Both the position numbers and the translations under genes were made by a program. A model generated the notes under the pieces. That model did no database searches, had not been told where the DNA came from, and saw nothing but the letters and a program-made list of their open reading frames with translations. Source: Escherichia coli O127:H6 str. E2348/69 (GTDB lineage: Bacteria > Pseudomonadota > Gammaproteobacteria > Enterobacterales > Enterobacteriaceae). Taken from it: a stretch of DNA of 64,000 nucleotides. Positions within the stretch are counted from its first letter, which is position 1; each line of letters opens with the position of its first letter. The stretch lies in assembly GCF_000026545.1 (NCBI RefSeq), contig NC_011601.1. The stretch is one strand, 5' to 3'. Below are positions 445 through 49,670 of the stretch, one piece after another.

Positions 445-495
445 ATGACACGCGTTCAATTTAAACACCACCATCATCACCATCATCCTGACTAG
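445..495 (+). CDS. hisL: his operon leader peptide (16 aa, 7 consecutive His codons)
   Basis: ATG 445, TAG 493-495; translation MTRVQFKHHHHHHHPD; followed by attenuator hairpin. Confidence 0.93.
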   Translation: MTRVQFKHHHHHHHPD

Positions 496-557
496 TCTTT
501 CAGGCGATGTGTGCTGGAAGACATTCAGATCTTCCAGTGGTGCATGAACGCATGGGA

Positions 558-594
558 AAGCCCCCGGAAGATCACCTTCCGGGGGCTTTTTTAT
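558..594 (+). terminator. his attenuator, rho-independent terminator hairpin plus U-run
   Basis: GC-rich inverted repeat AAGCCCCCGGAAG...CTTCCGGGGGC followed by TTTTTTATT, between hisL and hisG. Confidence 0.88.
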
Positions 595-11925: not shown

Positions 11926-12825
11926 CTACATTGCTATCCAGTTTTCATTTTTAAGAGAGCATTCATTTCCGGATATGTACCATTGTTTAGGCGCGATGAC
12001 TAGCTTATCTTCTGACCTGTTTAGCCATGCCCCCCACCAACTATATGTGCTGTTTGCAATAATATTATTATTACACAATGACATTAAATACATATCAATT
12101 ACACTAAATTTGTTTTCATCAGCATCAGCAACCAAGCAATTGCTATATTTTGAGAATTTTTCCTTTGCCCATATGACATCATCTGTAAAGATTATAAATG
12201 TCTGAGAGCCACATTCACTTTCAATGTATTCCATTGCACTAATATAATAATCCATACTTAGAGTGCCGTGAAATTTTGCAGCATGTTTATTATTTACATA
12301 ATCTCCACGTCGCACATGAATTGACGTTATATTCTTAGAGTCAGTAATTAAGGAATATATTTGTAGGTTATGACATAACACGCGAAGATCATCACGTATT
12401 TCAAAAAGGGGCAAAATTAAATCCCTATGTTCATTTAATAATTTAGAATCTTGGTAAAATGAGAATAGACACGCAACATCAATGTTTTTAATTGATTCCG
12501 GATTGTAATAAGAAGCATCATTTAATGAATATTTATTACACAGTTTAATTGCAGTGAACTGAAGAAAACTGTTAAGCAGTGGTATTTTTTTATGTTTCCT
12601 CAAACGATTTATTTTTACTTTTTCATCTTTAGAACTAAACCTATCAAAAATAATTTTAAATTGATCAAGCTCAAGATGTCGTATAGTATCTTTTTGAGGC
12701 TGGTTGAAATAATAACTATCATCAAGCACTAATATAGTATCAGGAAAATGTTGCTTAAGGATATAGGCTGCAGCATATTGGAACATTTGATTACCTAACC
12801 CACCGGATAGACAGCAATACATCAT
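11926..12825 (-). CDS. Alpha-1,2-fucosyltransferase (GT11 family); last gene of O-antigen cluster
   Basis: 299 aa; GT11 hallmarks GGLGNQMFQYA near N-terminus and HVRRGDY motif; very AT-rich DNA. Confidence 0.8.
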   Translation of the reverse strand: MMYCCLSGGLGNQMFQYAAAYILKQHFPDTILVLDDSYYFNQPQKDTIRHLELDQFKIIFDRFSSKDEKVKINRLRKHKKIPLLNSFLQFTAIKLCNKYSLNDASYYNPESIKNIDVACLFSFYQDSKLLNEHRDLILPLFEIRDDLRVLCHNLQIYSLITDSKNITSIHVRRGDYVNNKHAAKFHGTLSMDYYISAMEYIESECGSQTFIIFTDDVIWAKEKFSKYSNCLVADADENKFSVIDMYLMSLCNNNIIANSTYSWWGAWLNRSEDKLVIAPKQWYISGNECSLKNENWIAM

Positions 12826-12832
12826 TAAGTCC

Positions 12833-13570
12833 TTATTTAACTAATGCTTTAATAAAATGATATGTACAAGAAAGAAAACTCATTATACTTTTCTTTTTAA
12901 GAAATTCTCGCAAAGAATACCCAGCACATTCATAATATGCCAGTTTAGACTTCTGTGTTGAATTTGAGTGAACACGGTAATTTAACAAAGGCTCTTCCAT
13001 ATTATCCCAACGTGGTTTTAAGCTTCGCATTCTTAACCACAAATCATAATCTTCAGAGTTAAAACCACCATTATACCCTCTTGTTTTAAGAAACAAATCT
13101 TTTCTGAACATTATTGAAGGATGTGCGAAACAGTTTCGAAACATTATATATCTATTTATTAATTTTTGTCTGGGGTAAAGCCTTACACCTAAAAAACCAT
13201 CATTTTCATCAATTAGATTTATTGAGGTTCCAATTAAATCAAGTTCATTATCTATAAGATATTTAATTTGCTTTTGAAGTCGGTTAGGTAAGGCTATGTC
13301 ATCAGAATCCATCCTCGCGATGATATCATATTTAGCTTTGGATATTGCCAAATTTAAAGAAAAAGCCAATTGCCCTATATTGGTTTCAATAATATTAACA
13401 TTCTCTGTTTGTTTTATGTTATTTTTTAAGACACGGGCAATGTCACTGGCTTCATTGCCATTAGCAACAATTATTAACTCATATTTTTTATAAGTTTGAT
13501 TCAATATGCTATTTATCGCAGGCATTACATATGAATCATATTTATTTATACACATAATTACAGAAATCAT
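12833..13570 (-). CDS. GT2-family glycosyltransferase (O-unit)
   Basis: 245 aa; GT-A N-terminus and DSDD (DxD) motif; AT-rich. Confidence 0.75.
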   Translation of the reverse strand: MISVIMCINKYDSYVMPAINSILNQTYKKYELIIVANGNEASDIARVLKNNIKQTENVNIIETNIGQLAFSLNLAISKAKYDIIARMDSDDIALPNRLQKQIKYLIDNELDLIGTSINLIDENDGFLGVRLYPRQKLINRYIMFRNCFAHPSIMFRKDLFLKTRGYNGGFNSEDYDLWLRMRSLKPRWDNMEEPLLNYRVHSNSTQKSKLAYYECAGYSLREFLKKKSIMSFLSCTYHFIKALVK

Positions 13571-14737
13571 TTAAACATCTTCCTTTCTAGCGCATATAGT
13601 TTTTATAACCACTAAATATGAAAATATAAGCGGCAATATGAAAAATATCATATTTACAAAATTATTATACATCATCGCAAATATGCAGGCCATAATGACA
13701 AATGGTTGAAAAACAAATGCAAAAGGAGACGTATTTCGCTGTAAATATATTAATTGAATTATGAACCCAACCAAATAGGCATATATTACGCTGAATATAC
13801 CCAATGAAACATAAGCACTTCCTACAAAACCTATAGGTGAGGTAACATCTGGAAACTCCAAGCTAATTGGTGACGCTGGAATGATTTTTTGAGGTAAAAA
13901 CCAATTGAAGAAATAAAACACATCCTGTATATTATTTTGAATAACATAGTTAAAATTAACAACAGGTGAACCGAAATAAAAACCGCCAACAAATCTAAAT
14001 AAAAAATCAAAACTCAATGATAAATTTTGTTCAGGATTTCGAATTATGCGCGTAAATGAAAATAAAAAAATGACTACACCTCCTATTATAACTCCTTTAT
14101 TAATAGATATTCTCCGTCTGGAAAATAGCATCAAAGCTAATAAAACATATAATAAAGATTGCAATTTCGCATAACTAATAAATTTGATTATTATAACCAA
14201 TATACTTATAAAAACAATAGCTCGATTATCTTTTATCAAACGAGATATACCATACATAATAATACCAAAATAGCCCAACATTACAGATATTCCATGTATT
14301 CCCAGCGGAGATGAAGCAATCTGAGACTCTATTGTTTGAGCAGAGACACCACCGCTAATATATATATTATATATATTAGCTTCGTGCATGTAATACTGGG
14401 TTACAATTAAACTTATTACATTTGAATAAAAAACAAACTTTAATAACCCATTATAAAAAGAAAAGTTGTATAAGTAGTGGCTTCTATGGTTGCTATGTTT
14501 TTGATAATTAAATAAATACGCAAAAAAAGCCCCAAAAAGAAAAAACAAATAAAAAACTAAAGATATAAAAAACACCGTATAATCAGGTTTTTGATTAAAT
14601 ATAAAGAATGAATTCCATTCTTCTTCACTGGTATATAATTGAAAAAAAGTGTTTAAAACGATTGACATTAAAATTAATATAACGGGATTAAAGAAACGTC
14701 TAAAATCATTACTTTTTGGAATTGTTATCTGCATCAT
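13571..14737 (-). CDS. wzy: O-antigen polymerase
   Basis: 388 aa, highly hydrophobic multi-TM protein with no soluble-domain motifs; position between wzx and GT genes; AT-rich. Confidence 0.7.
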   Translation of the reverse strand: MMQITIPKSNDFRRFFNPVILILMSIVLNTFFQLYTSEEEWNSFFIFNQKPDYTVFFISLVFYLFFLFGAFFAYLFNYQKHSNHRSHYLYNFSFYNGLLKFVFYSNVISLIVTQYYMHEANIYNIYISGGVSAQTIESQIASSPLGIHGISVMLGYFGIIMYGISRLIKDNRAIVFISILVIIIKFISYAKLQSLLYVLLALMLFSRRRISINKGVIIGGVVIFLFSFTRIIRNPEQNLSLSFDFLFRFVGGFYFGSPVVNFNYVIQNNIQDVFYFFNWFLPQKIIPASPISLEFPDVTSPIGFVGSAYVSLGIFSVIYAYLVGFIIQLIYLQRNTSPFAFVFQPFVIMACIFAMMYNNFVNMIFFILPLIFSYLVVIKTICARKEDV

Positions 14738-14744
14738 CTTAATC

Positions 14745-15398
14745 TTATTCCGAGTCTGGATATTTAAATTCTGAAAGAATCAGTTCTAGTTCTTCATAAT
14801 CTTTTTCCCACCATTTCATTTTTTCCAACTTATTTCTTGTATCATCATTAAAACGATAATAAAGTACTTTACAAGGAACCCCTGCAGCAACAGCATAAGG
14901 AGGTATATTCTTAGTAACAACTGAGCCAGCCCCAATAATAGCGCCATTACCTACAGTTACTCCATCCAATATAACCGTATTCGCACCCAAACATACATCA
15001 TGACCAATCATAATTCTTTTGGTTTCTTCAAATGTATGCGAATCCGGAGGTGGACAGCTTTTAGAAAGCCAATGTATTGAATTTTTCCCATAACAGAATG
15101 GATGCGTCGATATATATTCCGACACAGGATGTTTACCTAATCCCATTTTCACACTTTCTGCAATAGAACAATACCGACCGATTGACGTGTTCAATATTGT
15201 ACAATTCCTCTGAATATAAGTATGACGTCCAATATTTGAATTATAAAGCAATGTATTGTTATACACTTTTATATTCTCCTCAAATGTTACATGCCTTATT
15301 CTCGCTCCGGGATAAACACTAACGCCTTGAAAACATAGAATAATGTTTTTAATTAAATAGCATATAGGTAACAGTATATATTCTTTTATTATATTCAT
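14745..15398 (-). CDS. Hexapeptide-repeat O-acetyltransferase
   Basis: Left-handed beta-helix repeats (IGHDVCLGANTVILDGVTVGNGAIIGAGSVV); ATG at 15398 overlaps wzx stop as ATGA; ORF track extends to a GTG at 15461. Confidence 0.7.
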   Translation of the reverse strand: MNIIKEYILLPICYLIKNIILCFQGVSVYPGARIRHVTFEENIKVYNNTLLYNSNIGRHTYIQRNCTILNTSIGRYCSIAESVKMGLGKHPVSEYISTHPFCYGKNSIHWLSKSCPPPDSHTFEETKRIMIGHDVCLGANTVILDGVTVGNGAIIGAGSVVTKNIPPYAVAAGVPCKVLYYRFNDDTRNKLEKMKWWEKDYEELELILSEFKYPDSE

Positions 15399-16666
15399 CT
15401 TGCTCTCATTAATAAAAATATTCCGCCAATTGAAAAAGATATACTTGCATATGCTATCCACATCATGCCGCCAATTGAAATAGAGTTATTTCCTTTCATG
15501 AAATGGAATAAAATAAACATGCTTAATGCAGAAATAATATTACTGAACAGTATAATTCCCCCTGCGTTTAATCGAACAAGGTTTGTATAGATAAATGTAT
15601 ATGGTATATTTATTAAAACTGAGAGGCAAATAAGAGCTAAAGCCCCCCCTCCATGATTAGCTATATAATGATTTCTTGTCCATAAATATAAAATATCAGA
15701 TGAAAATATTATTGTCAGACCAATAGGGAAAGCTAATACCAATAGCATAATTATCATTTTTTTTAACGATAGAACATTAAATATACTCTTTTCCCCTTGT
15801 GATGATAAAGCTGGTAACAATGACTTCATCAAAGGATATTGTAGCTGTAAAAAAGATAATCCCAGTTGTGCAACAATAACATATACTCCATATAACTGTG
15901 TTTCCACGTAGTGTGATAATAATATTTTATCTAACTGTGAAACAAACACACCAACAATCACACCAAATGAAAATATATAGTTCTCTTTAACCAAATCAAT
16001 TAATTGAATCAATATATTATTATCTATTAAGCCTTTAAGATCTATATTATTGCGAGTAATCCATAAAAAATTAAAAATAAATTCTATACAGGTAACCACT
16101 GCGAAGGAAACTATATATACTATAGGTTCTGGATTTACCATCAATGAAATCAGCGCGACACAATGTTTACATGAAAAAAAACACACTTGGCTTAAATTAG
16201 TATTAAATTGCTTTTGAGTACCATTCCAAAAACCTATATTGAGATTATTTGCAAATTGAAATAGGAATTGAATTGCAAGCAATCTTATACAAAACTCTAA
16301 CTCCCTACTGCTATGCCCTGCATTAAACCATCTAAATGCCAACCAACCAGCCGAACTGGTTAGAAAAACCGCCCCAACAAAAGCAACAGCAATATATATC
16401 CAAAAATATGCAAAAAATATGTTTTCTGGCGTATTCGTTTTAGCAATATCGCGAGGCATAATCTGCGAACACCCAGCATCCAGAATAAGTAACATAGCCT
16501 GGATACTTAAACAAGCAGAGACGATACCCCATCCATGGGGACCTAGTAGCTTGATATAAAAGGGTATAAGGACTATTATCCCCCCCCCCATCCAAATCAT
16601 ACCAATGTAATTAAACATTGTGTTTCGTAAGAATATATTATTTTTAAAAGAGGATATTATTGACAT
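15395..16666 (-). CDS. wzx: O-antigen flippase
   Basis: 423 aa polytopic membrane protein, position and hydrophobicity typical of Wzx; contains a G9 tract (plus-strand C9 at 16579-16587). Confidence 0.7.
   Translation of the reverse strand: MSIISSFKNNIFLRNTMFNYIGMIWMGGGIIVLIPFYIKLLGPHGWGIVSACLSIQAMLLILDAGCSQIMPRDIAKTNTPENIFFAYFWIYIAVAFVGAVFLTSSAGWLAFRWFNAGHSSRELEFCIRLLAIQFLFQFANNLNIGFWNGTQKQFNTNLSQVCFFSCKHCVALISLMVNPEPIVYIVSFAVVTCIEFIFNFLWITRNNIDLKGLIDNNILIQLIDLVKENYIFSFGVIVGVFVSQLDKILLSHYVETQLYGVYVIVAQLGLSFLQLQYPLMKSLLPALSSQGEKSIFNVLSLKKMIIMLLVLAFPIGLTIIFSSDILYLWTRNHYIANHGGGALALICLSVLINIPYTFIYTNLVRLNAGGIILFSNIISALSMFILFHFMKGNNSISIGGMMWIAYASISFSIGGIFLLMRAR
16579..16587. repeat. Homopolymeric C9/G9 tract inside wzx coding sequence
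   Basis: CCCCCCCCC on plus strand, encoding GGG (MIWMGGGIIVL) near the Wzx N-terminus. Confidence 0.9.
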
Positions 16667-16678
16667 ATAGATGTTTTT

Positions 16679-18052
16679 TTATTTTTCTTTTAATAAATTA
16701 ATAATAATTGCCGTATTATTTTCCATCACGAGCTGATCACCTCTTGATTCAACGTTCAAACGCACAACAGGTTCGGTGTTGGAGGAGCGCAGGTTAAAGC
16801 GCCAGTTGGCAAAGGCCATACTGATGCCATCGGTGCGATCCACCGCCAGCGCCTCACGGCTAAAATGCTGTTCCACGCGGTTAATCGCCTCAACGGGGTG
16901 CGTGAGTTTGCTGTTGATCTCACCACTTGCCGGAAAAGCCGCCATCCGGTCGCGCACCAGTTCGCCCAGCGTTTTCCCTTTCAGGCACACCAGTTCGGCG
17001 ACCAGCAGCCACGGGATCATGCCGCTGTCGCAGTAAGCGAAATCACGGAAGTAATGGTGGGCGCTCATTTCGCCACCGTAGATAGCGTCTTCCTTACGCA
17101 TACGTTCTTTAATAAAGGCGTGTCCGGTTTTCGACATTATTGGCGTACCGCCTGCGGCAGTCACCACATCAACGGTGTTCCAGGAGAGACGTGGATCGTG
17201 GATGATCTTCGCGCCGGGATTTTTTTCGAGGAACGCCTCTGCCAGCAAACCGACAATGTAGTAACCCTCAATAAACTGCCCTTTTTCGTCAAACAGGAAA
17301 CAGCGGTCAAAATCGCCATCAAAAGCAATGCCCATATCCGCGCCGTGTTTAATGACCGCATTGCGGGTGTCGTCGCGACATTCCGGCAGTAGCGGGTTAG
17401 GAATACCGTTGGGGAAATTGCCGTCCGGCGTGTTATGCACTTTGATTAACTCCACCGGTGCGCCGAGGGCTTTAAAGCGGGCTTCAATGGCGTCCACCAC
17501 CGGACCCGCCGCGCCGTTCCCGGAGTTAATCACCAGCTTGAGCGGCGTGAGGTTTTTGACGTTGATATAACCGAACAGGTGATCAACGTAAGCTTCACGC
17601 AGATTGATTTGCTGATAGCGACCGCGTTTGGTTTCATCGACGGGAGGGAAGTCGTTGGCTTCTGCCAGACGCTGGACATCGCGCAGTCCGGTATCACCGC
17701 TGATCGGGCGAGCCCCCTCGCGCACCAGCTTCATGCCGTTGTAATCCATCGGGTTATGGCTGGCAGTAACTTCGATGCCGCCATCCACGCCGAGATGGAA
17801 CGTAGCGAAATAGATCTCTTCGGTGCCGGACATGCCGATATCCAGCACATCGACGCCCGCATCCTGTAAACCTTTCGCCAGCGCCAGTTTTAAGGTTTCG
17901 CTGGTGAGGCGGACATCACCACCTAAAACAATAGTTTTCGGTTTGAGAAATTCGCCATAGGCACGCCCAATACGCCAGGCAATATCTTCATTCAGTTCTT
18001 CGCCTAATTTTCCGCGAATATCGTAGGCTTTAAAGCAGGTTAATTTTTTCAT
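16679..18052 (-). CDS. manB: Phosphomannomutase, O-antigen copy
   Basis: 457 aa [16 protein letters not shown]..., TASHNP active-site motif; near-identical to the colanic copy cpsG except for the last ~20 residues. Confidence 0.93.
16750..18052. repeat. manB direct repeat, copy A (O-antigen locus)
   Basis: Aligns with 33740-35042 at offset 16990, roughly 96 percent identity by eye; homology ends exactly at the ATG. Confidence 0.8.
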
Positions 18053-18055
18053 TTA

Positions 18056-19513
18056 TTAGTCATCTATTTTGTAACGTTCTTTTTGACGAACAATATCATC
18101 CTCACCTAAATAATCTCCTGAACTAACTTCAATAAGATTGAGAGGAATTATACCTGGATTTTCAAGGCTATAAGTAGCACCCAGAGGAATATAAACGGAT
18201 TCATTAGCAGTAACTAAGAAAGTTTTATTATTTAACGTTACTTTTGCTGTACCTGAAAGGACAATCCAATGCTCTGAACGATGATGATGCATACGTAAGG
18301 ATAGCCCTTCCCCTGGTTTAACGACAATCTTTTTGACCTTATATCGATCTCCCTGTTCTATAGCATCAAACTTTCCCCAAGGACGAAATTCCTCGCGATG
18401 TGATAGATATTCAGAACGTTCTTGCATTTTAAGCATTTGAACAATTTTCTTAACATCCTGAACTTCGGATTTTTTTGAAACTAGAATTGCATCTTTCGTC
18501 TGAACAATAACAATATCCTCCACACCTACAGCGGCTACTAAGGCTGACTCCGAATGAATATAATTATTTTTTGTATTATAAGTCAGGATATCACCTTTGC
18601 AAACGTCCCCTGTAGGAGTTTTATCACTAACGTCCCACAATGATTGCCAAGATCCAACATCGTTCCAACCAATATCAACGGGATAGACTATACAACGCTT
18701 TGTTTTTTCCATTACTGCAAAATCAATTGATTCCGATGGACAATTTTGAAAAACATCTTTCGAAAGTCGTATAAAATCAAGATCATGGTAGGACGAAGAA
18801 ACTGTTTTTTCACATATATCGTATATATCAGGTCTGTATTTTTTTAACTCCTCTAAATATACTGATGCTTTGAACATAAACATCCCACTATTCCAGAGAT
18901 ATTTACCTGAGGAGATATACTCTTCAGCCCTTGAGCGATTAGGTTTTTCAACAAATTGTTCCACGTGATAGAATGTATTACCAACTCCACGTTGTGATTC
19001 TTTAACTATACTCCCTTTTTCTATATAACCGTAACCAGTTTCTGCATAATCAGGAATAATACCAAATGTTAAAATATTTCCTTGTTCAACAATTGAAATG
19101 GAATTTTTAATAGCATTACAAAAAACATCTGTTTTGTTTATAACATGGTCAGCTGCAAGAACTAAAAGTATAGGATCTTGTTGTTCATTACGCTTTAAGG
19201 CTGTAAATGCTGAAAGTGCTATAGCTGGTGCAGTATTTCTTCCACATGGTTCAAGAATAATGTTATCGCTTAATTGGTTTATTTGACGCAATTGTTCTGC
19301 GACCACAAAACGATGCTGCTCGTTAGTTATTACTAATGGAGTTTCGCAAGAAAGCGGGGATAGTCGTAATAAAGTTGACTGTAATAAAGTATTCTCACCT
19401 GATAATTGCAGAAATTGCTTCGGATAGTGCTCTCTTGAGAGGGGCCAAAGACGGCTACCCGTACCACCAGCCATTACAACAGCAATCAACGGTACATCAG
19501 ACATTTTTGACAT
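18056..19513 (-). CDS. manC: Mannose-1-phosphate guanylyltransferase, O-antigen copy
   Basis: 485 aa; [11 protein letters not shown] motif; AT-rich and clearly diverged from the colanic copy cpsB. Confidence 0.9.
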
Positions 19514-20000
19514 CCTTTTTATCTAAACCAATAACAGCACTTGGATCATGATTAAAATAAGCTCGGCTGTTAGCGTGAACATTGTTACTGGCGAGCAGCG
19601 CGTCCGGCGTCAGCCAGCGGTAATCGTCATGCTGCTCATCCGGCAGTAACAGCTCTTCTTCCGCTACCCTGAAGCGAAAACCGAGCACCACATAGTGAGT
19701 GGTGAAATCCGTGCCGGAGAAGTTGTCGTCATAAAAGTGCTGCCAGACACCGTAAAACTGGCCTGCTGTTATCTGCAGACGCAGCCCCAGTTCCGCCATC
19801 GTCAGCCGCTCAAATGCGGCTTCCAGCGTTTCGTCTTTCTGCACGCGCCCTCCCGGCACAAACCAGTAACCCTGCGCCGGGCGGTTGGTTCTTTTGCCAA
19901 GCAGAAACTCGCCGCGACTGTTCTCGACAATAAAGTCGAGAGAGACAAGCGGAGTGGAGCGCACTACCGTGGCAAAGTCTTCCTGACGTAAAAACATCAT
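19497..20000 (-). CDS. gmm: GDP-mannose mannosyl hydrolase (Nudix), O-antigen copy
   Basis: 167 aa [13 protein letters not shown]...; Nudix box [23 protein letters not shown]; matches the colanic copy closely except for the C-terminal ~18 residues. Confidence 0.9.
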
Positions 20001-20965
20001 TACCCCCGAAAGCGGTCTTGATTCTCAAGGAACCACTGGTAAGTGCTGGCAAGCCCCGCTTCCAGTGAGATTTCGTGATACCAGCCAAGCTGATGCAGGC
20101 GCGTCACATCCAGCAGTTTGCGCGGCGTACCATCCGGTTTACTGGCATCAAAAACCACCCGACCTTTGTAACCCACCACTTTGGCGATGGTTTGCGCCAG
20201 TTCACGGATGGTGCAGTCAACGCCCGTGCCGACGTTAATGTGCGACAACATCGGCTGGGTGTTTTCCAGCCAGACTTCGTGCGCCAACTCCATCACATGA
20301 ATGCTTGCCGCCGCCATATCATCGACGTGCAGAAATTCGCGCATCGGTGTACCGCTGCCCCACACCACCACGTCCGGTGCATTCTGTGCCGTCGCCTCGT
20401 GGAAGCGACGCAGCAATGCAGGTATCACATGGGAGTTACTCGGGTGGAAGTTGTCATGCGGCCCGTACAGGTTGGTCGGCATGACTGAGCGGTAATCGCG
20501 TCCGTACTGGCGATTGTAAGATTCGCACAGTTTGATCCCGGCGATTTTGGCAATAGCATAAGGCTCGTTAGTCGGCTCCAGCGTGCCCTTCAACAGCTCG
20601 CTTTCTGCCATCGGCTGTTTTGCCAGTTTCGGGTAGATACAGGACGATCCAAGAAACAGCAGTTTGTTCACGTCGTTCTGATGCGCGGCGTGAATGATGT
20701 TGCTCTCAATCATCATGTTCTGGTAGATGAAATCCGCCGGATAGGTGTTGTTGGCAACAATGCCGCCCACTTTCGCCGCCGCCAGATAGACCTGGTCAAT
20801 GCGTTCGCTGGCAAAGAAATCATGCACCGCGCGGCTGTCCAGCAGGTTCAGCTCGTCGCGGGTGCGTAATACCAGTTCCACATCACCGCGCTGTTCGAGC
20901 TGCCGCCTGATGGCAGAACCGACCATTCCGCGATGGCCAGCGATAAAAATGCGTTGTCTACTCAT
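20000..20965 (-). CDS. fcl: GDP-L-fucose synthase, O-antigen copy
   Basis: 321 aa; protein identical to the colanic copy at 38376-39341. Confidence 0.95.
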
Positions 20966-20967
20966 GC

Positions 20968-22089
20968 TTATGACTCCAGCGCGATCGCCACGTCGTAGCC
21001 GTGAGATTTCAGCAGAGAGTGTTTTTTCGCCGCTTCGAGGTCATTAGCCACCATTTCAGACACCATCTCTCTGAGGGTGATTTCCGGTTTCCAGCCCAGT
21101 TTTTCGTGCGCTTTGGTCGGGTCGCCGAGCAGCGTTTCAACTTCAGCCGGACGGAAGTAGCGCGGATCAACCTTAACGATTACATCTCCAGGTTTAACTG
21201 CTGGAGCATCCTCACCATTAACAGAAACCACTATCCCCTTCTCATCTACACCTGTGCCTTCAAAACGCAGTTTGATTCCGACTCGCTCCGCCGCCATTTC
21301 CACGAACTGACGCACGGAGTACTGAACGCCGGTCGCGATGACGAAATCTTCCGGCTGTTCCTGTTGCAGCATCATCCACTGCATTTTTACGTAGTCTTTG
21401 GCATGGCCCCAGTCACGCAGGGAATCCATATTGCCGAGGTACAGGCACGATTCCAGCCCCTGGGCGATGTTTGCGATTGCGCGGGTGATTTTGCGGGTAA
21501 CGAAGGTTTCGCCGCGGCGCGGGGATTCATGGTTGAAGAGAATACCGTTACAGGCGTACATGCCGTAGGATTCGCGGTAGTTAACGGTGATCCAGTAGGC
21601 ATACAGTTTGGCGACCGCATACGGAGAGCGTGGGTAGAACGGCGTGGTTTCTTTCTGCGGAATTTCCTGCACCAGACCGTACAGTTCAGAAGTGGAAGCC
21701 TGATAAAAACGGGTTTTCTTTTCCAGACCGAGGAAGCGGATCGCCTCCAGCAGGCGCAGCGTACCCATCGCATCGACGTCAGCGGTATATTCCGGTGACT
21801 CAAAAGAAACCGCAACGTGACTCATTGCGCCCAGGTTGTACACTTCATCCGGCTGCACTTCACACAAAATGCGCGTCAGGTTGGAGGTATCTGTCAGATC
21901 GCCATAATGCAGATGGAATTTCGGGTTGCAGGTGTGCGGATCCTGATAAATGTGATCCACGCGCTCGGTGTTGAATGACGATGCACGACGCTTAATACCA
22001 TGCACCTCGTAACCTTTTTCCAGCAGAAACTCTGCCAGGTAAGAACCGTCTTGTCCGGTTATGCCAGTAATGAGAGCGACTTTAGCCAT
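20968..22089 (-). CDS. gmd: GDP-mannose 4,6-dehydratase, O-antigen copy
   Basis: ATG at 22089 gives [18 protein letters not shown]...; ORF track begins at an upstream TTG (22119). Confidence 0.93.
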
Positions 22090-22115
22090 TTTACATTTCC
22101 TGTTCTTAAAAATAC

Positions 22116-23132
22116 TCAACCTAAAATAATGCTTTTATATGCTGAAGCATAGTTCTCGATAACAAATTTCCCGGAGGCACGAATTGCCTGTTCCCGATAA
22201 TTTTCATAGTCATCGAATATTTTATCCAATTTATATCCAATGTCGTCTTCAGTATTTTCCACAAGTAACCCATTACCCTCAATTAATTCAAAACATCCGC
22301 CCACATCACTTAACAGGAGTGGTATTGCAGCTGTGTGAGCCTCAAGGCCTGACATAGGCAAACCTTCACTATCGGATATCAGTGAAAATAAATCATACTC
22401 ATGATAGTTATAAAAATTATTGACCTCACCCAAAAAATGAATATTTTCACATTCACTGAATTGTTTCTTCAATGATTCTAACCTTTCCCCCCCTCCTACG
22501 ATATGGAGGCTATACTGGGGCTTTTTCGATATTACATTCGCTAACAACTCGGGGCGCTTAGGGTGTGTTAACCTACCAACAAACAGAACCTTATACTGGA
22601 GTTGTTTATTATTACATCTCGGCATCTGAGGCACTGAATTCGATACTGTGATTATCTTTGGTTCTTTTATACCAATATTCTCAATTGCCTTTTTTTCATC
22701 ACTTTTGGAAACACACCATATAACATCAGTTAATAAAGAAAGGTATTTTTCCACAATGCAAAAAATTGATTTTAGGCGACCACCATTATATAAACAAGAC
22801 CATCCATGCGAAACATAAATACATTTAAAGTCGACTAGTAATCGAACTAACCTGGCATAAACTCCGGCATTAGCAGAACTTGCTATTAACGTTGAAATGT
22901 TATTTTCTTTTAAAATTTTTCTCAATTTAAACAATGTAAGGAAGTCAAAATATTTTTTAATACCTGGTATGACAAAAACTCCGGCAAAGACATCTTTATG
23001 TGTGAGCCATCCTTCTTCAGATGTAATAAGAAATATATTACATTCCTCTTTAATAAGGTTAGATATTTCATTTACCCATGTTTGTGCACCACCAATTTCT
23101 GATTTTGTAACAATAAAACCAACATTTTTCAT
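22116..23132 (-). CDS. GT4-family glycosyltransferase (O-unit)
   Basis: 338 aa; GT-B fold features and a C-terminal EX7E-like region; AT-rich. Confidence 0.7.
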
Positions 23133-23150
23133 ATATCAAAATTCCAAAAA

Positions 23151-24170
23151 TTATTTTTTATATCCATTTGGATTGTTTGTTTGCCAACGCCATACATCTT
23201 CGATCATTTCTTTCAATTTTTTTTCCGCTTTCCAGGAAAGCTTTTTATGTGCTAAATCAGCAGACGCCCATGACTCCGCAACATCCCCCTCACGTCTATT
23301 ACAAATAGCAACAGGTATACTCTTTTTAGTGACTATCTCAAACATTTTTACAATCTCTAAAACAGAATAACCTTGACCAGTGCCTAAATTAAAAGCTTCA
23401 TAATTGACATCATTTAAAAACATATATTCTAATGCTTTAACATGCCCTTTAGCCAAATCACAGACATGTATATAGTCTCTTACTCCTGTACCATCTTTAG
23501 TTGGATAATCGTTGCCATAAATATTTAATACAGGAAGTTGATTTTGTGCAACTTTAGATATATAAGGAACCAGATTATTAGGAATCCCGTTAGGATTTTC
23601 ACCAATCATCCCGGACTTATGTGCTCCGATTGGATTAAAGTAACGCAGTGCAATTACTGATTTATTATTATCACTATCACAATAATCACTCAAAATTATT
23701 TCTATTATAAATTTCGATGTCCCATATGGGTTTGTAGTTTCACCAATTCGTCTATCTTCCGTATGGGGAGGGATACTGTTATTCCCATAAACAGTAGCAG
23801 AAGAGCTAAATATCATTTTATTAATGTTATATCTCTTCATGCATTCAAGTAATACTAAAGTTCCACCAACATTATTAGAATAATACTCTAAGGGCTTTAA
23901 CTTAGACTCACCTACAGATTTTAACGATGCAAAGTGAATTACAGCATCGATATGGTGTCTTGAAAAAATCTCATCAAGTAGATTTTTATCACGGATATCA
24001 CCTTGATAAGAAATAATTTTCTTATTAGTTATTTGCTCTACTCTTTTTAATGATTCTATAGAGGAATTGACAAAATTATCTATCGAAACGACATCATGAC
24101 CATTATTAAGTAACTCAAGTATGGTATGGGATCCAATATATCCTGCACCGCCTGTTACGAAAATCACCAT
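23151..24170 (-). CDS. UDP-hexose 4-epimerase (GalE/Gne-like); first gene of O-antigen cluster
   Basis: ATG at 24170 gives MVIFVTGGAGYIGSH...; YGTSK catalytic motif; ORF track extends upstream to a TTG at 24239. Confidence 0.85.
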   Translation of the reverse strand: MVIFVTGGAGYIGSHTILELLNNGHDVVSIDNFVNSSIESLKRVEQITNKKIISYQGDIRDKNLLDEIFSRHHIDAVIHFASLKSVGESKLKPLEYYSNNVGGTLVLLECMKRYNINKMIFSSSATVYGNNSIPPHTEDRRIGETTNPYGTSKFIIEIILSDYCDSDNNKSVIALRYFNPIGAHKSGMIGENPNGIPNNLVPYISKVAQNQLPVLNIYGNDYPTKDGTGVRDYIHVCDLAKGHVKALEYMFLNDVNYEAFNLGTGQGYSVLEIVKMFEIVTKKSIPVAICNRREGDVAESWASADLAHKKLSWKAEKKLKEMIEDVWRWQTNNPNGYKK

Positions 24171-24199
24171 ATAAACCTCCTTTACCATGAGGATTGAGA

Positions 24200-24245
24200 G
24201 AAAAACACACGCTACCGCCCTTGGCTTAACAGTTACCAACTCACT
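24200..24245 (-). promoter_or_regulatory. JUMPstart region with ops element (RfaH-dependent antitermination) in O-antigen operon leader
   Basis: Plus-strand CACGCTACCGCC at 24208-24219 is the reverse complement of the ops consensus GGCGGTAGCGTG; lies between galF and the first O-antigen gene. Confidence 0.8.
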
Positions 24246-24479
24246 GAAAATGAATCATAGGTACTAAGCATTTAATACTTTTCACTATTTTCCAATTGTC
24301 TAACCAAACGAAGTCAGATACAAGGAAAATCTATGTCCGAGCGATACTTGCGGTAACTTATTGTTATTAAATACTTTAAATAAAAGACAGGAACATTCTT
24401 ATAATGTAAGCATCTCTGCTTTTGAATGTTCACTGCCGTTCTATTTTTATTCAATCCACCATATATGGATGATTAATTT

Positions 24480-25615: not shown

Positions 25616-26611
25616 TTACTCAGAAACAAACGTTATGTCGTCTTTTTTGGCATGAACGAATTCATACTGCAGAGTTCGATCCAGACCTTGCGACAGCGTA
25701 TACGGTGCCACAAAACCTGAAGAATGCACTTTCGTTGCGTCAAACTGTGTTGTTGCGCAGAATTTTTTCACGCGCACAGAGCTGACAGCGTATTTTTTGC
25801 CAGTAATTTTGCTCAGGATATCAAAGCAATATCCACCCAGCATTCCTAGTGGGTAAGGCAAGTGCATAGAAGGGATCTTTTTGTTTAGGCTTTGTTCAAC
25901 TTCAGCAACCAACTGGTTCATATTCAGGTCTGGCTTATCAACGTAGTTATAAACCTCGTAACCTGCGGCAACATTCTTCAGTTTGTACTTGATAAACTCA
26001 ACAATGTTTCCAACATAAGCCATGGACTTATAGTTAGTCCCTGCGCCCACCATCATAAACTTGCCGCCAGCGATCTGTTTCAGCAAGTTATAGACGTTAC
26101 CGCGGTTCCGTTCACCGAAGATAACGGTAGGACGGATGATGGTTAATGAACGTTCTGTTGGTGCTTTGTTATACCATTCACGCAGCACTTCCTCTGCCTG
26201 CCACTTACTTTTGCCGTAGTGGTTGAAAGGATCGTGTGGATGGTTTTCGTCAGGGTTGTGTTTGTTCAAACCATAAACAGCAACGGAACTGGTAAAGATG
26301 ATATTTTTAACGCCATTTTTTTCCATGGCCGCCAGCACATTGCGGGTACCCTGAACGTTGACATCATAATAGAGAGAAGTAGGGCTGACGTCATCGCGGT
26401 GTTCCGCTGCCAGTAGTACAACAGTGTCAAAACCGGCTAACGCCTGGTCGAGTGCCTGTTGATCACGAACATCGCCAATCTGTGTGATTTCTGGATAAAA
26501 GTGGCTCTGCTGTTTGTCCAGGTTCTTGATATTAAAGTCAGCAATTGCCGTTTCAAGTAGTCGGGTTCCTACGAATCCGGAAGCTCCTATGAGCAAAACG
26601 TTATCGTTCAT
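25616..26611 (-). CDS. gne: NAD-dependent epimerase (Gne / Z3206-like UDP-GlcNAc or GlcNAc-P-P-Und 4-epimerase)
   Basis: 331 aa MNDNVLLIGASGFVGTRLLE...; YGKSK motif; sits between wcaM and galF, where some E. coli lineages carry gne. Confidence 0.8.
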   Translation of the reverse strand: MNDNVLLIGASGFVGTRLLETAIADFNIKNLDKQQSHFYPEITQIGDVRDQQALDQALAGFDTVVLLAAEHRDDVSPTSLYYDVNVQGTRNVLAAMEKNGVKNIIFTSSVAVYGLNKHNPDENHPHDPFNHYGKSKWQAEEVLREWYNKAPTERSLTIIRPTVIFGERNRGNVYNLLKQIAGGKFMMVGAGTNYKSMAYVGNIVEFIKYKLKNVAAGYEVYNYVDKPDLNMNQLVAEVEQSLNKKIPSMHLPYPLGMLGGYCFDILSKITGKKYAVSSVRVKKFCATTQFDATKVHSSGFVAPYTLSQGLDRTLQYEFVHAKKDDITFVSE

Positions 26612-33671: not shown

Positions 33672-35042
33672 TTACTCATTCAGCAACGTCAGCAGAGTTC
33701 GCGTTCGCGCTTCCATCAGCGGCACATCACCGCGCGATTCCACATTCAACCGCACCACCGGTTCGGTGTTGGAGGTGCGCAGGTTAAAGCGCCAGTCGGC
33801 AAAGGTCATGCTGATGCCATCGGTACGATCCACCGCCAGCGCCTCACGGCTAAAATGCTGTTCGACGCGATTAATCGCCTCAACGGGTTGCGCCAGTTTG
33901 CTGTTGATCTCACCGCTTGCCGGAAACGCCGCCATCCGGTCGCGCACCAGTTCGCCCAGCGTTTTTCCTTTCAGGCACAACAGTTCGGCTACCAGCAGCC
34001 ACGGGATCATGCCGCTGTCGCAGTAAGCGAAATCACGGAAGTAATGGTGAGCGCTCATTTCGCCACCGTAGATGGCGTCTTCCTTGCGCATCCGTTCTTT
34101 AATAAAGGCGTGTCCGGTTTTCGACATTACCGGGGTGCCGCCTGCGGCAGTCACCACATCAATAGTGTTCCAGGAGAGACGCGGATCATGGATGATCTTC
34201 GCGCCGGGATTTTTTTCGAGGAACGCTTCTGCCAGCAGGCCGACAATGTAGTAGCCCTCGATAAACTGCCCTTTTTCGTCAAACAGAAAACAGCGGTCAA
34301 AATCGCCATCAAAGGCAATGCCCATATCCGCGCCGTGTTTGATGACCGCATTGCGGGTGTCGTCGCGACATTCCGGCAGCAGCGGGTTAGGAATACCGTT
34401 GGGGAAATTGCCGTCCGGTGTGTTGTGTACTTTGATTAATTCCACGGGCGCGCCGAGGGCTTTAAAGCGGGCTTCGATGGCGTCCACCACCGGACCCGCT
34501 GCGCCATTCCCGGAGTTAATCACCAGCTTGAGCGGCGTGAGGTTTTTGACGTTGATATAACCGAACAGGTGATCAACGTAAGCGTCACGCAGATTAATTT
34601 TCTGATAGTGACCGCGTTTGGATTCATCAACGGGAGGGAAGTCGTTGGCTTCTGCCAGGCGCTGGACGTCGCGCAGTCCGGTATCACCGCTGATCGGGCG
34701 AGCCCCTTCGCGCACCAGCTTCATGCCATTGTAATCCATCGGATTATGGCTGGCGGTAACTTCGATGCCGCCATCCACGCCGAGATGGAACGTGGCGAAA
34801 TAGATCTCTTCGGTGCCGGACATGCCAATATCCAGCACATCGACGCCCGCATCCTGTAAACCTTTCGCCAGCGCCAGTTTTAAGGTTTCGCTGGTGAGAC
34901 GAACATCACCGCCTAACACAATGGTTTTCGGTTTGAGAAATTCGCCATAGGCGCGACCAATGCGCCAGGCAATATCTTCATTCAGTTCTTCGCCTAATTT
35001 CCCGCGAATATCATAGGCTTTAAAGCAGGTTAATTTTTTCAT
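33672..35042 (-). CDS. cpsG: Phosphomannomutase, colanic acid copy
   Basis: ATG at 35042 gives [16 protein letters not shown]...; ORF track extends upstream to 35090. Confidence 0.95.
33740..35042. repeat. manB direct repeat, copy B (cpsG, colanic acid locus)
   Basis: See copy A. Confidence 0.8.
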
Positions 35043-35132
35043 GTCGTTACCCTTTTTCAGGCAATAGTTGGCCCTGACCGAAGCGGCCAATTTTGTTTTT
35101 GTCGTTATTTACACCGCGGTTTCGCATTCATT

Positions 35133-37897: not shown

Positions 37898-38376
37898 AAT
37901 CCGGGTACTCCGGCACGCTTCTCAGCGAGAAAATAGGCGCGGCTGTTAGCGTGAACATCGTTACTGGCGAGCAGCGCGTCCGGCGTCAGCCAGCGGTAAT
38001 CGTCATGCTGCTCATCCGGCATTAACAGCTCTTCTTCCGCTACCCTGAAGCGAAAACCGAGCACCACATAGTGAGTGGTGAAATCCGTGCCGGAGAAGTT
38101 GTCGTCATAAAAGTGCTGCCAGACACCGTAAAACTGGCCTGCTGTTATCTGCAGACGCAGCCCCAGTTCCGCCATCGTCAGCCGCTCAAATGCGGCTTCC
38201 AGCGTTTCGTCTTTCTGCACGCGCCCTCCCGGCACAAACCAGTAACCCTGCGCCGGGCGGTTGGTTCTTTTGCCAAGCAGAAACTCGCCGCGACTGTTCT
38301 CGACAATAAAGTCGAGAGAGACAAGCGGAGTGGAGCGCACTACCGTGGCAAAGTCTTCCTGACGTAAAAACATCAT
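37894..38376 (-). CDS. gmm: GDP-mannose mannosyl hydrolase (Nudix), colanic copy
   Basis: 160 aa (wcaH); Nudix box present; tandem ATGs at 38376/38373. Confidence 0.93.
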
Positions 38377-39341
38377 TACCCCCGAAAGCGGTCTTGATTC
38401 TCAAGGAACCACTGGTAAGTGCTGGCAAGCCCCGCTTCCAGTGAGATTTCGTGATACCAGCCAAGCTGATGCAGGCGCGTCACATCCAGCAGTTTGCGCG
38501 GCGTACCATCCGGTTTACTGGCATCAAAAACCACCCGACCTTTGTAACCCACCACTTTGGCGATGGTTTGCGCCAGTTCACGGATGGTGCAGTCAACGCC
38601 CGTGCCGACGTTAATGTGCGACAACATCGGCTGGGTGTTTTCCAGCCAGACTTCGTGCGCCAACTCCATCACATGAATGCTTGCCGCCGCCATATCATCG
38701 ACGTGCAGAAATTCGCGCATCGGTGTACCGCTGCCCCACACCACCACGTCCGGTGCATTCTGTGCCGTCGCCTCGTGGAAGCGACGCAGCAATGCAGGTA
38801 TCACATGGGAGTTACTCGGGTGGAAGTTGTCATGCGGCCCGTACAGGTTGGTCGGCATGACTGAGCGGTAATCGCGTCCGTACTGGCGATTGTAAGATTC
38901 GCACAGTTTGATCCCGGCGATTTTGGCAATAGCATAAGGCTCGTTAGTCGGCTCCAGCGTGCCCTTCAACAGCTCGCTTTCTGCCATCGGCTGTTTTGCC
39001 AGTTTCGGGTAGATACAGGACGATCCAAGAAACAGCAGTTTGTTCACGTCGTTCTGATGCGCGGCGTGAATGATGTTGCTCTCAATCATCATGTTCTGGT
39101 AGATGAAATCCGCCGGATAGGTGTTGTTGGCAACAATGCCGCCCACTTTCGCCGCCGCCAGATAGACCTGGTCAATGCGTTCGCTGGCAAAGAAATCATG
39201 CACCGCGCGGCTGTCCAGCAGGTTCAGCTCGTCGCGGGTGCGTAATACCAGTTCCACATCACCGCGCTGTTCGAGCTGCCGCCTGATGGCAGAACCGACC
39301 ATTCCGCGATGGCCAGCGATAAAAATGCGTTGTCTACTCAT
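38376..39341 (-). CDS. fcl: GDP-L-fucose synthase, colanic copy
   Basis: 321 aa (wcaG); identical protein to the O-antigen copy. Confidence 0.95.
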
Positions 39342-39343
39342 GC

Positions 39344-40465
39344 TTATGACTCCAGCGCGATCGCCACGTCGTAGCCGTGAGATTTCAGCAGAGAGTGTTT
39401 TTTCGCCGCTTCGAGGTCATTAGCCACCATTTCAGACACCATCTCTCTGAGGGTGATTTCCGGTTTCCAGCCCAGTTTTTCGTGCGCTTTGGTCGGGTCG
39501 CCGAGCAGCGTTTCAACTTCAGCCGGACGGAAGTAACGCGGATCAACGGCGATAATCACATCACCCGGTTTAACGCCCGGCGCGTCATGCCCGGTGACGG
39601 AAACCACAATGCCCTTCTCTTCAACGCCCGTGCCTTCAAAGCGCAGTTTGATGCCCAGCTGTGCTGCCGCCATTTCCACGAACTGACGCACGGAGTACTG
39701 AACGCCGGTCGCGATAACGAAATCTTCCGGCTGTTCCTGTTGCAGCATCATCCACTGCATTTTTACGTAGTCTTTGGCATGGCCCCAGTCACGCAGGGAA
39801 TCCATATTGCCGAGGTACAGGCACGACTCCAGCCCCTGGGCGATATTGGCGATTGCGCGGGTGATTTTGCGGGTAACGAAGGTTTCGCCGCGGCGCGGGG
39901 ATTCATGGTTGAAGAGAATACCGTTACAGGCGTACATGCCGTAGGATTCGCGGTAGTTAACGGTGATCCAGTAGGCGTACAGTTTGGCGACAGCATACGG
40001 AGAGCGTGGGTAGAACGGCGTGGTTTCTTTCTGCGGAATTTCCTGCACCAGACCATACAGTTCAGAGGTGGAAGCCTGATAGAAACGGGTTTTCTTTTCC
40101 AGACCGAGGAAGCGGATCGCCTCGAGCAGGCGCAGCGTACCCATCGCATCGACGTCTGCGGTATATTCCGGTGACTCAAAAGAAACCGCAACGTGGCTCA
40201 TTGCGCCCAGGTTGTACACTTCATCCGGCTGCACTTCACGCAAAATGCGTGTCAGGTTGGAGGTATCACTCAGGTCGCCATAATGCAGATGGAATTTCGG
40301 GTTGCAGGTGTGCGGATCCTGATAAATGTGATCCACGCGCTCGGTGTTGAATGACGATGCACGACGCTTAATACCATGCACCTCGTAACCTTTTTCCAGC
40401 AGAAACTCTGCCAGGTAAGAACCGTCTTGTCCGGTTACACCGGTGATGAGAGCGACTTTTGACAT
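39344..40465 (-). CDS. gmd: GDP-mannose 4,6-dehydratase, colanic copy
   Basis: 373 aa [18 protein letters not shown]... Confidence 0.95.
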
Positions 40466-49658: not shown

Positions 49659-49670
49659 CACGCTACCGCC
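49659..49670 (-). promoter_or_regulatory. ops element in the colanic acid (cps) operon leader
   Basis: Plus-strand CACGCTACCGCC is the reverse complement of GGCGGTAGCGTG; about 180 nt upstream of the wza start on the transcribed strand. Confidence 0.8.

Follow-up and report, generated by a model that had tools for sequence, protein, structure and literature searches.

Does the leader of the O127 O-antigen operon of Escherichia coli E2348/69 carry an ops/JUMPstart element, and would this element bring the operon under the control of RfaH? In this study, the question was investigated in a window of 64,000 nucleotides, which is the whole stretch of DNA that was analysed. The annotation was taken from RefSeq record NZ_LT827011.1 (EPEC O127:H6 E2348/69), which was 100% identical to the window between 7100 and 64000. 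The window contained the his operon on the plus strand, followed on the minus strand by wzzB, ugd, gnd, the O127 cluster, galF, a 4-epimerase gene, and the wca cluster up to wza; yegH, asmA, dcd, and udk lay beyond wza. A histidine operon leader/attenuator (RF00514, 129.6 bits) was found upstream of hisG at 471-594 (+). At about 55678-60553 (+), a diguanylate cyclase gene (yegE/dgcE homologue) was split by ISEc13 (IS4-like) and annotated as two pseudogene fragments.

The initial annotation had claimed a 12-nt ops element in the leader, and exact GGCGGTAGCGTG was present at the claimed position on the minus strand (Table 1). Read from 24219 to 24208, it was a full match to the 12-nt consensus GGCGGTAGnnTG, including core bases 3-8 and the T11-G12 pause dinucleotide. 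The region around it on the minus strand reads ...TTTTCAGTGAGTTGGTAACTGTTAAGCCAAGGGCGGTAGCGTGTGTTTTTCTCTCAATCCTCATGGTAAAGGAGGTTTATATGGTG... The motif was on the non-template strand, since its 5' to 3' direction is that of the minus strand, on which all 12 genes lie. The earlier wording "transcribed strand" was ambiguous and should read sense or non-template strand. The claimed distance of 38 nt upstream of the first gene was exact if the last base of ops and the A of the ATG are taken as end points, which leaves 37 nt between them. GGCGGTAGCGTG was the only ops-like site with at most two mismatches on the minus strand of the operon region, and no further site of this kind was found on the sense strand within the O-antigen operon.

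Table 1. Features of the O127 leader and operon and their positions in the window.
Feature	Coordinates	Strand	Description	Basis
ops element	24208..24219	(-)	GGCGGTAGCGTG; consensus pause site and RfaH recruitment site	exact match
JUMPstart, 39 nt	24208..24246	(-)	CAGTGAGTTGGTAACTGTTAAGCCAAGGGCGGTAGCGTG; ops is its 3' end	Rfam RF01707
Conserved 5-bp stem-loop	24221..24239	(-)	UUGGU / 9-nt loop / GCCAA; upstream half of JUMPstart	fits Rfam consensus structure
Candidate sigma-70 promoter	24295..24323	(-)	TTGTAT (24323-24318), 17-nt spacer, GACAAT (24300-24295)	inferred from conservation
Terminator-like long hairpin and U-run	24378..24446	(-)	just after galF stop codon	RNA fold, arm conservation
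Shine-Dalgarno AAGGAGG	24176..24182	(-)	5 nt before gne ATG	read from sequence
O127 O-antigen operon	11926..24170	(-)	12 genes, 12.2 kb, downstream of ops	RefSeq annotation

The upstream bound of E. coli O-antigen clusters is a conserved 39-bp JUMPstart downstream of galF (PMC4732683). The same arrangement was found here, with galF (25373-24480) followed by the JUMPstart, by gne and the rest of the 12-gene O127 cluster, and by gnd. The Rfam covariance model RF01707, which has a gathering score of 35, gave the 39-nt element 52.5 bits (E = 3.8e-9) over model positions 1-38 of 38.

The operon downstream of the element had been described as a long, AT-rich unit of 12 genes. Twelve co-directional genes were indeed present on the minus strand, and their spacing of -8 to 26 nt is compatible with a single transcription unit. 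The gene order was gne/galE, GT4, gmd, fcl, gmm, manC, manB, wzx, O-acetyltransferase, wzy, GT, and alpha-1,2-fucosyltransferase. The first gene, gne/galE, starts at ATG 24170 (-), and its protein begins MVIFVTGGAGYIGS. The term AT-rich was correct for eight genes with 28-36% GC (gne, GT4, manC, wzx, acetyltransferase, wzy, GT, and fucosyltransferase) but not for gmd, fcl, gmm, and manB, which have 53-56% GC and make up one third of the operon. The segments of 28-36% GC were 22116-24170, 18056-19504, and 11926-16666. An intrinsic terminator scan of the operon revealed no excess, with 11 found and 13.4 expected, and thus gave no sign of particular terminators within the operon for RfaH to override. 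Any polarity that is suppressed in the operon is therefore presumably due to Rho and H-NS.

The high-GC islands are present because gmd-fcl-gmm and manB are near-copies of colanic-acid genes, which lie as direct repeats 17-18.4 kb away. Between 19554-22083 and 37930-40459 the identity was 97.6%, with zero mismatches over about 1.5 kb (19654-21153); between 16721-18052 and 33711-35042 it was 93.9%. The Fcl protein was identical in the O-antigen and colanic-acid copies (WP_000089908.1). This near-identity looks like the result of recent gene conversion, and the repeats are a substrate for deletion by homologous recombination. In the colanic-acid cluster, the algC RNA motif of Rfam (RF02929, cut-off 33.8 bits) was found with 77.3 bits at 35047-35096 (-), in the 192-nt gap before cpsG (manB). 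This motif is missing from the O-antigen manB because the homology begins only at 18052. A gene for a Gnu-type GlcNAc-PP-undecaprenol 4-epimerase (WP_000999466.1; the same protein is found in O157:H7) was located between wcaM and galF at 25616-26611 (-). Since this gene is upstream of the JUMPstart, it is outside the ops-controlled unit. The enzyme probably serves GalNAc-initiated O-unit synthesis. A second epimerase of the strain, of the GalE/Gne type, is encoded by the first gene of the O-antigen operon.

The conservation of the element was investigated in 13 leaders, namely the galF-to-first-gene regions of 12 other E. coli genomes and that of O127. The sampled genomes included K-12 O16, O157:H7, O25b-ST131, O113, O28ac/O42, and a neuB-containing cluster. 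Exact GGCGGTAGCGTG was located at the 3' end of a 39-nt JUMPstart in all 13 leaders, at 18-92 nt from the first gene where that gene was intact. In an intergenic alignment of 10 sequences from 10 serogroups, mean column conservation was 100% for ops and 92% for the JUMPstart, against 53-64% for the flanks (55% immediately upstream and 53% downstream). The identification of the site as ops/JUMPstart was thus borne out by the exact 12-mer, the RF01707 score, the sense-strand position, and the conservation in all sampled leaders.

Some of the sampled leaders, and one further strain, had individual features. The leader of strain 2012C-4502 (L013, NZ_CP027440.1) was only 160 nt long and had two ops-type sites (1113-1124 and 1205-1243): GGCGGTAGTATG, and then a JUMPstart with GGCGGTAGCGTG 119 nt downstream. 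The annotated GTG start of the first glycosyltransferase of this strain overlapped the last ops bases, which suggests that the start was mis-called. In strain 1506 (L012, NZ_CP059288.1), an ISAs1-family transposase pseudogene, from 1740 onward, replaced the first O-antigen gene directly after the JUMPstart. In strain CH4796 (NZ_CM166348.1), IS1 interrupted an O127-type galE directly downstream of the JUMPstart.

The ops element was found upstream of the annotated ATG with its Shine-Dalgarno sequence and downstream of both a terminator-like hairpin after galF and a promoter-like block. Besides the JUMPstart, the only conserved blocks in the upstream region were the arms of this hairpin and a 38-nt block (24330-24293). 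The hairpin had a folding energy of -23.3 kcal/mol (z = -5.3), which was equalled by none of 200 shuffles, and its arms, ACGGCAG...CTGCCGT, were conserved in other serogroups. It is probably the galF terminator and would insulate the O-antigen operon from galF read-through. The 38-nt block contains TTGTAT-17-GACAAT and was 80% conserved across the 10 serogroups, compared with 55-64% in neighbouring sequence. It was read as the putative promoter of the O-antigen operon. The candidate matched 7 of 12 consensus positions, and a consensus sigma-70 scan of the galF-gne intergenic region gave no site with at least 9 of 12 matches; the assignment therefore rests on conservation across serogroups. With a promoter at 24323-24295, transcription would be expected to begin near 24288, and ops would lie at about +70. 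A longer mechanical open reading frame starting at TTG 24239, which would have ops inside the coding sequence, was rejected because the RefSeq start is ATG 24170. The TTG start was also disfavoured by AAGGAGG 5 nt before ATG 24170 and by the Rossmann motif VTGGAGYIG from residue 5.

The gene for RfaH itself (WP_001192400.1) is annotated at 4225150-4225638 in the E2348/69 record identical to the window, and rfaH was matched in 5425 of 5426 complete E. coli genomes. The 12-nt ops is present in the leader of all RfaH-controlled operons; recruitment of RfaH requires its bases 3-8, and pausing requires T11-G12 (PMC5995543). GGCGGTAGCGTG is the 'ops12' oligo of the structural work on RfaH:ops (PMC5995543). 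RNA polymerase (RNAP) pauses at U11, and a small hairpin is formed by the non-template strand, from which T6 is flipped out into a pocket in the N-terminal domain of RfaH (PMC5995543). The 12-mer folded as DNA in the present analysis gave a weak hairpin (-0.9 kcal/mol) in a register unlike that of the published crystal structure. This fold is uninformative, and the sequence is in any case identical to the crystallised consensus. Once loaded, RfaH stays on RNAP and excludes NusG, by which Rho-dependent termination is prevented, and its C-terminal domain, once refolded, binds ribosomal protein S10 (PMC5995543).

In uropathogenic E. coli CFT073, ChIP-seq detects RfaH from the leader ops of the O-antigen ('wzx') unit onward and throughout the unit (PMC9765446). 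In the CFT073 rfaH deletion mutant, RNAP occupancy 5.4 kb downstream drops to 0.1-0.34 or less of the wild type, and wzx, kps, and rfa have RfaH-dependent traveling ratios of 0.1-0.34 or lower (PMC9765446). All eight RfaH targets of CFT073, including wza-wcaM, are covered by H-NS/StpA filaments (PMC9765446). In current literature, RfaH is credited with counter-silencing of H-NS filaments in addition to antitermination. In K-12, RfaH is recruited at two operons (PMC9765446). In the literature searched, no RfaH experiment on E2348/69 or the O127 cluster was found, and RfaH loading and its effect on distal genes would be expected in O127 by homology with CFT073 and K-12.

The site is very probably the standard JUMPstart/ops leader element of an E. 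coli O-antigen cluster, here that of O127, acting via RfaH. By the same homology, RfaH-dependent antitermination and counter-silencing at the O127 operon appear well supported. Transcription would probably start at the operon's own promoter, for which TTGTAT-17-GACAAT is the candidate, downstream of the galF terminator hairpin. RNAP would transcribe about 70 nt and pause at U11 of ops, which is window position 24209. The exposed non-template GGCGGTAGCGTG would fold into a small hairpin and be read by autoinhibited RfaH, with T6 flipped out and G5 contacted. RfaH would then open and clamp onto RNAP for the remaining transcription unit, and with NusG excluded, Rho-dependent termination would be suppressed. 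Loaded RfaH would also reduce pausing, and its refolded KOW domain could recruit the ribosome. RNAP would thereby reach the distal wzx, wzy, and fucosyltransferase genes of the 12.2-kb operon, passing through the segments of 28-36% GC that are expected to carry H-NS/StpA filaments. Because the first gene has a canonical AAGGAGG, ribosome recruitment by RfaH may matter less here than in targets that lack such a sequence. Because one third of the operon has 53-56% GC, the picture of an AT-rich, H-NS-covered operon would apply only to parts of it.

The JUMPstart could also be explained at the RNA level. It is modelled in Rfam as an RNA with a 5-bp hairpin (PMC2864571), in which positions 8-12 pair with positions 22-26 of the 39-mer. 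Among 11 distinct JUMPstart sequences, the stem had standard pairs in all 55 cells, and all five O127 pairs were standard. The outer pair was C:G in eight sequences; the O127 type and strain 2012C-4502 had U:A instead, and the wca copy had U:G. The 27 nt on the 5' side of ops within the JUMPstart were about 87-92% conserved, yet RfaH contacts ops only (PMC5995543). These features would be expected if the upstream stem-loop were the main functional part, acting on mRNA stability or translation or through another factor, and ops were secondary. However, the hairpin was absent from the minimum-energy fold of the local RNA (z = +0.96 against shuffles), and the whole-leader RNA fold was no better than shuffles (z = +0.29). 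The covariation consisted of a single compensatory pair, the C:G to U:A change seen in the O127 outer pair, and 32 of 500 column shuffles scored equally. The highest conservation was in the ops bases, whose role at the DNA level is established. An element working mainly through its RNA is decidedly unlikely.

A stable RNA structure is not claimed, given RNA folds that did not surpass shuffles and a minimum-energy fold without the Rfam hairpin. The JUMPstart hairpin is regarded as a conserved feature of uncertain role, with weak structural support. A function of the 27 nt separate from RfaH:ops recognition was considered because this part is nearly as conserved as ops though RfaH contacts only ops; such a function is rather unlikely. 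This part might bind a further factor or might, as a structured stretch of nucleic acid, position the ops pause or make it last longer. If a separate function were true, the C:G to U:A stem change of the O127/O90 type would be evidence for selection on pairing.

The ops element fits the consensus pause, and RNAP pauses there without RfaH (PMC5995543). It might therefore be only a pause, for example one that synchronises gne translation, with no productive RfaH loading and with NusG-coupled ribosomes taking over at the strong Shine-Dalgarno sequence 25 nt downstream. The canonical AAGGAGG before gne agrees with such a pause, as does the finding that ops-like sites inside translated coding regions of CFT073 show no RfaH loading (PMC9765446). 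The O127 ops, however, precedes the annotated start, probably within an untranslated leader, and would be transcribed ahead of the Shine-Dalgarno sequence, and the equivalent leader sites of CFT073 and K-12 load RfaH (PMC9765446). Substitutions of G4, G5, A7, or G8 abolish RfaH recruitment but keep pausing (PMC5995543). These four bases, dispensable for the pause and essential for RfaH, were nevertheless invariant in 13 of 13 leaders, which argues for selection on RfaH recognition and not merely on pausing. A pause alone is thus a very improbable explanation.

The simple expectation for the exact 12-mer was about 0.008 per window. The looser pattern GGCGGTAGNNTG occurred twice in the window, compared with 0.11 expected from dinucleotide-preserving shuffles, and both occurrences were in leaders of polysaccharide operons on the sense strand. 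A chance match or functionless relic, for which nothing speaks but the shortness of the motif, is scarcely credible against this expectation and the Rfam E-value, and the perfectly conserved position of the site in serogroups with diverged flanks already refutes it.

The preferred reading, a standard JUMPstart/ops element acting via RfaH, adds nothing new on mechanism. The presence of JUMPstart/ops in front of E. coli O-antigen clusters became known in 1994, and its RfaH dependence in 1998. The JUMPstart was reportedly described by Hobbs and Reeves in 1994, and the ops core and the RfaH dependence of O-antigen expression are said to have been worked out by Nieto et al., Marolda and Valvano (1998), and Wang et al. 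in 1996-1998 (reference list of PMC2864571). The element routinely serves as the upstream limit of O-antigen clusters in PCR and annotation. The O127 element is already known in kind and has a textbook interpretation, with nothing unusual beyond small sequence variants. It is of use as an annotation aid, since ops/JUMPstart marks the 5' boundary and the strand of the O127 transcription unit, and the O127 ops can serve as a positive control in scans for RfaH-type regulons. It is also predicted that mutation of rfaH in EPEC E2348/69 would abolish the O127 O-antigen and, with it, the group 4 capsule, which is built from the same repeat unit.

The O127 element was compared with known systems. Like the JUMPstart of E. 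coli and Salmonella O-antigen (rfb/wb*) clusters (RF01707), it was 39 nt long and lay between galF and the first gene. The 12 nt at its 3' end were identical, the 5-bp stem-loop was the same, and 35 of 39 positions agreed with the majority consensus of 11 sequences. The O127/O90-type JUMPstart differed from the majority at four positions. A6 replaces C, A14 in the loop replaces G, and G7 stands at a position for which the majority shows no consensus; the outer stem pair is U:A and not C:G, the T8 and A26 substitutions being compensatory. The distance from ops to the start codon was 38 nt in O127 and 75-76 nt in rmlB-first clusters.

The O127 site also resembled the ops (operon polarity suppressor) sites of the RfaH regulon (rfb and rfa (waa) of K-12; wzx, kps, hly, rfa, and wza of CFT073) in its non-template strand, its probable leader position, and its single copy per transcription unit, and its 12-mer was identical to that of the K-12 rfb leader. 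RfaH targets are often described as lacking a Shine-Dalgarno sequence (PMC5995543), whereas the first gene of the O127 operon has a canonical one. A further comparison was with the window itself, where the colanic-acid (wza-wcaM) leader has a full JUMPstart at 49659-49697 (-) (57.3 bits) with the same ops 12-mer on the same strand. In CFT073, the wza-wcaM unit is a cryptic RfaH target, to which RfaH is bound only when hns and stpA are deleted (PMC9765446). The two JUMPstart copies differed in the loop, which was GCTAAAAA in the colanic-acid copy and ACTGTTAA in O127, and in the outer stem pair, which was U:G in the colanic-acid copy. The colanic-acid ops (49659-49670) was 179 nt upstream of wza, compared with 38 nt for the O127 operon.
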